From Shigella phage SF1-1: a DNA stretch of 64,000 bases. This document shows, one piece after another, positions 49,629 through 50,068 of the stretch. Made by a program: the position numbers and the translations under genes. The notes under the pieces were generated by a model that was not told the DNA's origin, ran no database searches, and worked only from the letters and a program-made list of their open reading frames with translations. Numbering within the stretch: the stretch's first letter is position 1; each line of letters opens with the position of its first letter. Location of the stretch: the sequence record PQ571307; one strand, written 5' to 3'.

Positions 49629-49649
49629 CTCACCTGCATAAATTTTTGT

Positions 49650-49688
49650 AAACTTTAAATTTTGCTTTTGTACTTTCATTTTTGTAAA
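49650..49688. repeat. about 39-bp direct repeat, copy A
   Basis: AAACTTTAAATTTTGCTTTTGTACTTTCATTTTTGTAAA. Confidence 0.5.
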
Positions 49689-49787
49689 AGCAAAAAAACT
49701 TTAAATACTGTGGGCGCGCAAAATTTTTAAAATTTTCCTTGACTTTTGAGTTTTGTTTTGTATCTGACATTTTAAGATAATTTTCCT

Positions 49788-49826
49788 AAACTTTAAATTT
49801 TGGTTTTCAACTTTCACTTTTGTAAA
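49788..49826. repeat. about 39-bp direct repeat, copy B
   Basis: AAACTTTAAATTTTGGTTTTCAACTTTCACTTTTGTAAA (about 34 of 39 identical to copy A). Confidence 0.5.
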
Positions 49827-50068
49827 TTCTTAAAAAGTTTAAATAATTTGAGGGATTTTTGAGATAATAGGTAGTGGGAATTTGAGATAACCTTTAATCT
49901 TATTGGTAAACCTTCAGGAACCCACTTAGATCGAATCCTAGTGATGCAAACTGAAAAAGATAAGGGTTTGTATAGGACAAAATAACAGGCTCTCTACGGT
50001 GCTGTAGGAGCCTTATTTCTGTGCTACAAAGTGACACCTTTGTTCTAAAAATGAAAAAAGTTAAAATA

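Follow-up and report, generated by a model that had tools for sequence, protein, structure and literature searches.

The window, the whole 64-kb stretch of DNA that was analysed, is Phapecoctavirus sequence (a phAPEC8-like E. coli myovirus of the Stephanstirmvirinae), and about 66 records match positions 49200-50100 at 95-99% identity. Small minus-strand genes form a block from about 23.5 to 56 kb, and this block is interrupted by a gap at 49265-50068 which belongs to an ORF-free module of about 800 bp (49265-50080) harbouring a set of direct repeats. An earlier note on this DNA had reported an ORF-free gap of about 700 bp. The gap is real, but it measures 804 bp and is overlapped by a 99-aa minus-strand ORF (49201-49500, gp009 in phAPEC8), the sole ORF longer than 50 aa. 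This ORF was judged to be non-coding since it overlaps conserved non-coding sequence in which relatives differ by indels of 1, 3, 5 and 6 nt. The coding potential of the gap as a whole was rejected because the indels between relatives are not multiples of three, and the minus-strand mini-ORFs within the repeats (MKVxxQNLKF...) were likewise discarded, having no ribosome-binding sites and being missing from other genera. In public records the module is unannotated or mis-annotated as ORFs, and it is present neither in Rfam nor in the searchable literature; the annotation of the several records that put ORFs over it is corrected here.

The small ORF directly upstream of the module is annotated in related phages (ASO2A_262, muut gp105 and in phiWec179) and has a phrog_19316 match in the window. 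The same slot is occupied by the unrelated families DUF7170/phrog_4653 and phrog_23636 in other genera, and the ORF was rejected as a conserved initiator or regulator because its family changes from genus to genus. The gene beyond the terminator side, on the minus strand, encodes a NADAR-domain protein. In the Vequintavirinae the downstream neighbours are phrog_12959/12463, which are without a homologue in the window. The neighbour of about 275 aa in that subfamily was dismissed as a shared initiator since the window holds no homologue of it, and no supporting evidence was found for a neighbouring AAA ATPase in this role. The features of the locus are the following, in window coordinates:

48992..49264, plus strand: small ORF of 90 aa directly upstream of the module, a variable slot outside the conserved core
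49267..49296, plus strand: promoter P1, sigma-70 type, TTGACA-18-TAAACT, 10/12
49302..49395, plus strand: G-rich block 1, with a putative H-type pseudoknot and a hairpin, then an invariant GGAAGGTNRATCGCCGG
49318-49321/49329-49332 and 49324-49326/49341-49343, plus strand: putative pseudoknot of block 1 (model)
49348-49353/49362-49366, plus strand: hairpin of block 1 (model)
49401..49420, plus strand: TGTAAAGA pair with a spacing of 10 bp, immediately ahead of P2
49433..49460, plus strand: promoter P2, TTGCTT-16-TATTCT, at a position conserved in relatives
49467..49512, plus strand: G-rich block 2 with the invariant core GAGACAAACACC, conserved, rV5-like phages included
49512-49534: hairpin around the first palindrome, then UUAUCAUUU; a possible weak terminator
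49526-49544, 49549-49567 (weak), 49584-49602 and 49613-49631, no strand assigned: Fur-box-like palindromes, consensus matches (array 49512..49631)
49636..49900, no strand assigned: AT-rich stretch of low stability, 24% GC, a candidate DNA-unwinding region
49641-49709, 49710-49778 (degenerate) and 49779-49847, plus strand: three direct repeats of about 69 bp, which include the repeats of the earlier note
49771, 49858 and 49881 (within 49771..49890), plus strand: TTTRAGATAA sites, the last two 23 bp apart
49987..50014, no strand assigned: bidirectional hairpin terminator that closes the gap
50064..50079, plus strand: right edge of the module, AAATATC twice, overlapping the NADAR stop codon

By sensitive blastn, 49302-49600 was found to be conserved in 345 phage records, with identities of 70-77%. 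Among them are Justusliebigvirus, Seunavirus (PVP-SE1, 4MG), Certrevirus (phiTE, POP15, PBES02), Mydovirus and Henunavirus. Phages of Serratia and Klebsiella are also represented, and the conservation extends in part to Vequintavirus (rV5-like). The comparison covered 14 annotated loci and 16 from IMG/VR, and all fetched loci show an ORF-free gap of 800-1000 bp in a minus-strand block with the elements in the same order: small plus-strand ORF, P1, block 1, TGTAAAGA pair, P2, block 2, palindromes, repeats, TTGAGATA and AAATATC. This order is kept in at least eight genera of the Stephanstirmvirinae and Vequintavirinae, in which the flanking genes differ. The repeats of the earlier note thus form a single layer of a larger module, which also comprises a second promoter, the two G-rich blocks and an array of Fur-box-like sites. 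No copies of the module were found in 5,426 E. coli genomes, one MAG matched among 185k genomes, and the one plasmid match resembles a mislabelled rV5-like phage. A host or plasmid derivation was rejected on these grounds, and the module is phage-only and single-copy, without host, plasmid or satellite copies. Further homologues were sought in a metagenome scan with GGAAGGTNNATCGCCGG, which gave chance GC-rich matches only, and in an IMG/VR scan with the AT-rich repeat motif, which gave mostly chance matches.

Two direct repeats of about 39 bp, some 140 bp apart, had been described at this locus, and they are found as 39-mers at 49650-49688 and 49788-49826, at a distance of 138 bp. Their similarity widens to 72 nt (49641-49712 versus 49779-49850), of which 59/72 are identical. 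When 49630-49900 was shuffled 300 times with dinucleotides preserved and the best 72-mer pair was scored each time, the shuffles reached 37.1 +/- 1.65 with a maximum of 42, and the observed value lies about 13 sd higher. The repeated short motifs that had been pointed out are exclusive to the locus within the 64 kb: AAASTTTAAAT occurs four times, always within 49650-49844, and TTTGAGATAA twice, both copies being in the repeat region. The array is composed of three units of about 69 bp, as in relatives, and its middle copy is degenerate in Phapecoctavirus, which is why the two good copies stand 138 bp, or 2 x 69 bp, apart. In each of the other genera examined there are three units of 62-71 nt at a spacing of 65-76 nt, with a lineage-specific sequence; two repeat copies are present in KP13-16. 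The unit reads AAAAATTTTTT...AATACG...TCGATCGAGAACC in the Vequintavirinae and TTGAACTTTTCATTTT...AAAAACTTTAAATAAT in the Stephanstirmvirinae. The comparison with related phages that had been proposed thus bears out the repeats, which are kept as three-unit arrays while their sequence differs by lineage.

Columns belonging to repeat motifs are 86% identical to phiWec179 compared to 63% in the other columns (Fisher p = 2e-4; 77% overall). A consensus RNA structure was not found in 20 Vequintavirinae units, but their GATCGAG core is invariant, and this combination suggests that the repeats are recognized at the DNA level. To judge from their sequence, the units look like protein-binding sites on DNA. 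The three repeats evolve in concert in each lineage and differ between subfamilies, a pattern that co-evolution of such sites with a phage protein would produce.

The stretch that carries the repeats, 49636-49900, ranks first for low nearest-neighbour duplex stability among both the 200-bp and the 300-bp windows of the 64 kb. Two or three copies of TTGAGATA are found in Phapecoctavirus, phiWec179, 4MG, Mydo and an Erwinia phage, and the pair spaced by 22-23 bp recurs in the last four of these; in several other genera the motifs were not detected. The right edge of the module holds two or three CAAATATC in 4MG, POP15, ChuuTotoro, the Erwinia phage and muut, next to a flanking gene that differs. 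The terminating hairpin that had been placed near 49990-50020 is present at 49987-50014 and folds on either strand (-15.3 and -16.8 kcal/mol). Its main role, however, is to terminate the convergent NADAR gene, and the phAPEC8 and ASO2A records annotate it as terminator of the upstream minus-strand gene.

The plus-strand promoter that had been predicted ahead of the gap, with no ORF following it, was confirmed as P1, the best sigma-70 match within 48500-50700, and it is conserved in relatives. In 14 phages of at least eight genera, a promoter at this position and at a fixed distance from the anchor scores 9.5-12.5 out of 12, with hexamers and spacer that vary. The counterparts of P2 in relatives are of the kind TTGATC-16-TATTAT and TTGCAA-17-TATATT. 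As predicted promoters, P1 and P2 are thus conserved through position and not through sequence. Conservation across genera begins at 49302, which is the predicted start of the P1 transcript. Both promoters point against the surrounding gene flow without a plus-strand ORF after them; the AT-rich repeats follow at a distance of 170-340 bp. The TGTAAAGA pair is found in nearly all aligned genera, with a single copy in ChuuTotoro and pEa_SNUABM_55, and the window has no other plus-strand copies of this motif than the two at 49401..49420.

Block 1, of about 95 nt, is near-invariant across the subfamilies. Both transcribed blocks are G-rich, and the plus strand has more G than C in 24/25 sequences. 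In the pseudoknot model of block 1, 99% of cells pair and compensatory change is seen at three pairs; the observed value was equalled in 0/500 shuffles and slid controls reached at most 49%, a result to be read with the small number of independent events behind the covariation and with the derivation of the model from the same sequences. Two elements previously described in such phages proved to be unrelated to the module. The pseudo-ToxI of phiTE, a mimic of a type III antitoxin, has its locus elsewhere, beside tRNAs and structural genes, and an unrelated sequence. The PHIRE 'phage promoters' of phAPEC8 are GC hairpins (GGCGGCAATGGTGCCGC) with no relation to the repeats.

The RNA-type covariation in block 1, together with a hairpin and U-rich tail after block 2, means that the promoters could simply make small RNAs that have nothing to do with replication, which counts against an origin. 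P1 and P2 would then yield trans-acting non-coding RNAs of about 240 and 75 nt that end at the hairpin at 49512-49545 and function in, for example, host takeover or anti-defence, and the AT-rich repeats would be a separate DNA element or promoter/regulator sites. This is the main rival to a replication origin, and we consider it possible, if rather unlikely. It is favoured by the conservation of the promoters, by the onset of conservation exactly at the predicted transcript start, by the compensatory pairs of block 1, by the conserved hairpin at 49512 (-11.3 kcal/mol, z = -4.15) followed by UUAUCAUUU, and by the non-coding character of the region. However, the stem of that hairpin is AT-rich and doubles as a Fur-type DNA palindrome, block 2 shows no consistent secondary structure, and rV5-like phages carry a different G-rich sequence in place of block 1. 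Rfam gave no match at E <= 1 over 5 kb, and at E <= 10 over 741 nt only chance matches to eukaryotic miRNA and snoRNA. The 243-nt fold is no better than shuffles (z = -1.0), and the conserved loops have no antisense targets above chance within the window. The repeats read at the DNA level, the TTGAGATA pair and the AAATATC edge motifs that accompany the promoters would also be left unexplained. The small RNA of about 700 nt suggested in the earlier note did not hold up against the Rfam and folding results, and structure-like covariation is found only in about 50 nt after P1.

The palindromes that follow block 2 match GATAATGATAATCATTATC at 14-16/19 positions, and such matches cluster at just two places in the window. 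The phage Fur-type consensus is GAGAATGATTATCATTCAA, and relatives have one to four palindromes of the type AAATGAGAATGATTATCATT. A position weight matrix was built from 29 distinct phage sites and run over 49 kb of E. coli K-12, where four of the five top hits fell in the intergenic regions fepB|entC (twice), fepA|fes and fepD|entS. These regions constitute 1.5% of the K-12 sequence scanned and are known to be Fur-controlled. With a matrix made without this lineage, the six top hits in the window were at 49526, 49584 and 49613 and at 41446, 41625 and 42463. The phage palindromes are therefore, as far as their sequence tells, Fur boxes. A weak promoter-like site (49569-49598) overlaps box 3. 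A portion of 55-90 nt of the array is common to T5-like phages at 77-85% identity, and these phages have four to six strong sites in Repeat Region 3 of the left terminal repeat. The T5-like sites adjoin the DnaA boxes that Davison discusses (bioRxiv 10.1101/866236), a paper in which Fur is not mentioned, and in the literature that we searched Fur boxes had not been described for these virulent phages. At the level of sequence, virulent phages of three families appear to hold host Fur-box arrays in non-coding DNA, which may point to a link between iron and phage development. Some of the palindromes in the injection-stop region of T5, so far without an explanation, could likewise be Fur boxes, an identity that can be tested.

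The physical ends of the genome were located elsewhere in the window. For BME3 (Justusliebigvirus), direct terminal repeats of 342 bp were reported by PhageTerm (PMC12210895), and the ends of its record fall in another ORF-free stretch of the window, 41102-42726. In at least 12 records of Phapecoctavirus the sequence stops precisely at position 41714 and that piece is present at both ends, and Schickermooser has an identical 329 bp at start and end, corresponding to 41386-41714. The module itself lies in unique sequence, 7.9-8.7 kb from the physical genome end.

One may speculate that the module is a landing pad for host factors or a boundary, analogous to T5 Repeat Region 3, which would organise, pause or insulate the terminal gene block of about 8 kb; in a variant, it would tie early phage transcription to iron status or titrate Fur. 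The behaviour of the palindromes as Fur boxes by sequence, the 55-90 nt shared with the T5-like region and the presence of the same boxes beside the phage's own 329-bp terminal repeat are in accordance with this. So are the distance of the module from the genome end, which is similar to that of the T5 region, and the skew of the 43-49 kb block, which differs from that of either neighbouring block. Nevertheless, the likeness to T5 is confined to the Fur-type palindromes, and the hallmarks of T5, namely paired DnaA boxes, DRD repeats and a location in a 10-kb terminal repeat, are missing. Two-step injection is, to our knowledge, not known for these myoviruses. Furthermore, the conserved promoters and G-rich blocks are not accounted for, and the role of the T5 region is itself a proposal, that of an injection stop signal (Davison, bioRxiv 10.1101/866236). 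A role as boundary or Fur landing pad is regarded as rather improbable.

The third alternative, a packaging signal of pac or cos type recognized by terminase, draws on the shape of the array. Multiple direct repeats, which are GATC-rich in the Vequintavirinae, resemble the arrays bound by terminase small subunits, e.g. P1 pac and lambda cosB. A packaging role is nonetheless very unlikely because the 329-bp terminal repeat maps to 41386-41714, about 8 kb from the module, and no terminase gene was found among the genes examined around it (about 46.9-55.2 kb). That the region is functionless AT-rich, low-complexity DNA with chance or slippage repeats is hardly credible even though short repeats are common at 24% GC, and it is refuted by conservation, the three-unit architecture, motifs and order persisting across subfamilies at 70-77% while the flanking genes change, in addition to the excess of the 59/72 match over shuffles.

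The most plausible reading of these observations, to which we assign a probability of roughly 0.4, is that the repeats are part of a single-copy cis-acting module that may be the origin of replication of phAPEC8-like and rV5-like myoviruses, or the region that controls its initiation. Its anatomy tentatively suggests an origin of the transcription-primed or transcription-activated class. Host RNA polymerase would initiate at tandem promoters of the sigma-70 type, P1 and P2, which are joined by a third in some genera, and the G-rich transcripts would cross the Fur-box array, where bound Fur or the 49512 hairpin could gate read-through. Transcription would then reach the 260-bp AT-rich region of low duplex stability, and a phage-encoded factor would assemble on the three lineage-specific repeats of about 69 bp and on the TTGAGATA pair with its 23-bp phasing. 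The transcription might open the DNA or provide an R-loop primer for the replication machinery of the phage, as at the T7 primary origin and T4 oriF/oriG; the positive G skew of the transcribed blocks is at most an indirect hint of such a primer.

Several lines of evidence lead to the origin reading. The repeats are far above chance, unique in the window and apparently read at the DNA level, they change together within a lineage, and their motifs are better conserved than the spacers. The region they occupy is the least stable duplex of 200-300 bp in the 64 kb. The order of elements is conserved in at least eight genera despite differing flanking genes, P1 and P2 are conserved in position with no ORF following, and the plus strand is G-rich in both blocks. 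Moreover, the module is phage-only, and the location of the genome termini elsewhere removes packaging as an alternative. The T7 gp4-like primase-helicase encoded by rV5-type phages (PMC3606486) is also counted in favour of an origin. The module fits an origin-like reading better than chance or coding sequence.

Other observations speak against an origin. The repeat units are three to four times the length of classical iterons and their spacing of 65-76 bp is not helically phased. Neither a DnaA box (TTWTNCACA) nor an IHF site (WATCAANNNNTTR) was found in 49265-50070, and no initiator gene adjoins the module, its upstream ORF and downstream gene both varying by genus. We know of no role of Fur boxes at origins. 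Minus-strand genes on the right side of the gap have a more negative GC skew than those on its left side, a trend opposite to that of a simple bidirectional origin, but transcription and gene content dominate phage skew. Since it is dominated by the direction of transcription, GC skew was set aside as uninformative for origins, and the skew analysis in the rV5 genome paper gave only changes that follow switches of transcription orientation. In the literature searched, neither a mapped origin nor a transcriptome of these phages was found, nor any connection with Fur.

A more specific version of the origin reading is that the Vequintavirinae and Stephanstirmvirinae share an undescribed type of origin, in which Fur-gated pseudoknot transcripts enter an initiator platform of three repeats. 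This we hold to be doubtful, but if it were true, phage DNA replication would be coupled to the iron status of the host, and the enigmatic repeat region of T5 would in part be accounted for by arrays of the same Fur boxes. The rV5-like and phAPEC8-like phages are among the coliphages of broadest host range and are widely used in therapy cocktails. The module offers a deeply conserved single-copy candidate for an origin or control region in about 800 bp, with sub-elements that can be mutated individually.

The resemblance to iteron origins proposed in the earlier note holds in part. As in lambda ori, P1 oriR, R6K and pSC101, direct repeats of the same orientation lie beside AT-rich, easily melted DNA, and here they are conserved, lineage-specific and apparently read at the DNA level. 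They are not classical iterons, however. Iteron units measure 17-22 bp whereas those of the module measure 62-72 bp and are spaced by 65-76 bp, and the module has neither DnaA and IHF sites nor a Rep gene that adjoins or encloses it; the only iteron-like element is the TTGAGATA pair with its spacing of 22-23 bp. Because it differs in the size and phasing of its units and lacks both DnaA/IHF sites and a neighbouring Rep gene, the module was not filed as an iteron origin.

The phage palindromes share with the Fur boxes of enterobacterial iron-uptake promoters a clustering in adjacent or overlapping copies, and the phage matrix recovers the ent-fep operators. In contrast to those boxes, the phage sites lie in non-coding DNA of virulent phages, downstream of promoters, and not clearly over the -35/-10 of a gene. 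T5 Repeat Region 3 and the module are both large, untranslated and dense in repeats or palindromes, and both border terminal early genes. Only the T5 region has paired DnaA boxes (IRD'/IRC'), nine DRD repeats and a LexA-like box, the paired DnaA boxes being present in the T5-like locus compared and absent from the module, and it lies inside a terminal repeat of about 10 kb whereas the module is in unique sequence.

The closest parallels to the proposed origin are found in other virulent phages. In the T7 primary origin the tandem promoters phi1.1A/1.1B are followed by an AT-rich region, and T4 oriF/oriG consist of a promoter and a downstream DNA-unwinding element primed by an R-loop. Like these, the module belongs to the early region of a virulent phage whose terminal repeat is short, and it has two or three tandem promoters without an ORF that would lead G-rich transcripts into easily melted DNA. 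It differs from them in that its promoters are of the host sigma-70 type and not dependent on a phage RNA polymerase or MotA, and in that about 200 nt of conserved transcribed sequence, the Fur array and the three repeats of about 69 bp separate the promoters from the AT-rich DNA. Should the module prove to be an origin, it would represent a new architecture of a known kind.

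The left edge of the conserved ORF-free module is a mosaic junction (49257-49302), with a small plus-strand ORF (48992-49264) beside it, at which close relatives fall into two groups. Similarity to the window starts at 49257 in one group and at 49302 in the other; this ORF and the spacer of the sigma-70-type promoter P1 are thus exchanged among phages that are otherwise 96-99% identical. The annotated 99-aa ORF at 49201-49500 (minus strand; gp009 in the phAPEC8 annotation) overlaps conserved non-coding sequence, as do comparable ORFs annotated over the repeats, namely genes 202 and 203 of PVP-SE1 and ORF185 of JES2013, and all of these are probably mis-annotations. 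The gene adjoining the module gap (50069-50611, minus strand) encodes a NADAR-domain protein (Pfam E = 2e-35), the product being named 'GTP cyclohydrolase II' in several GenBank records. The rV5-type version of the module is matched by CP057073.1 (E. coli, 137,565 bp), listed in the plasmid collection as a non-mobilizable plasmid; its size is that of an rV5-like genome, and the record probably represents a phage genome that was submitted under a plasmid label.

A second ORF-free region of 1.6 kb, larger than the module gap, is present at 41102-42726, and the direct terminal repeat of the genome is located inside it. The identical 329-bp ends of Schickermooser coincide with 41386-41714, and position 41714 is the end point of at least 12 records. 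Immediately rightward, the terminal repeat is followed by about 1 kb of DNA with strong T/G skew and many short repeats (GCTAATGATT, GTTGTT/ATTGTT and CATGGCAATCAT). The region also holds the following sites:
41446, Fur-box-like site
41625, Fur-box-like site
42463, Fur-box-like site

The gene block of about 6.5 kb that separates the terminal repeat from the module (43000-49000) differs in composition from the flanking minus-strand blocks (24000-41000 and 50000-56000), with a GC skew of about -0.11 versus about -0.19 and an AT skew of about -0.10 versus about -0.03, despite the same direction of transcription in all three.

In phAPEC8, the sequences that PHIRE predicts as 'phage-specific promoters' are GC hairpins (GGGCGGCAATGGTGCCGC). 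They recur between the small early genes and have the look of terminators or sites of RNA processing, not of promoters. Hairpins of this type were located in the window and in L001, a phage locus:
window 48824-48843, minus strand, GC hairpin
L001 1004-1023, GC hairpin
L001 1893-1912, GC hairpin
L001 2532-2551, GC hairpin

In the T5-like phage VEc33 (L007), Repeat Region 3 was covered over positions 1985-2520. Strong Fur-box-like palindromes are found at 1992-2160 and 2494, and a near-perfect LexA-box-like sequence (TACTGTATATTTATACAGTA, about 2283-2302) lies beside the known DnaA boxes. The enigmatic Repeat Region 3 of T5 thus resembles a set of sites for transcription factors of the host.
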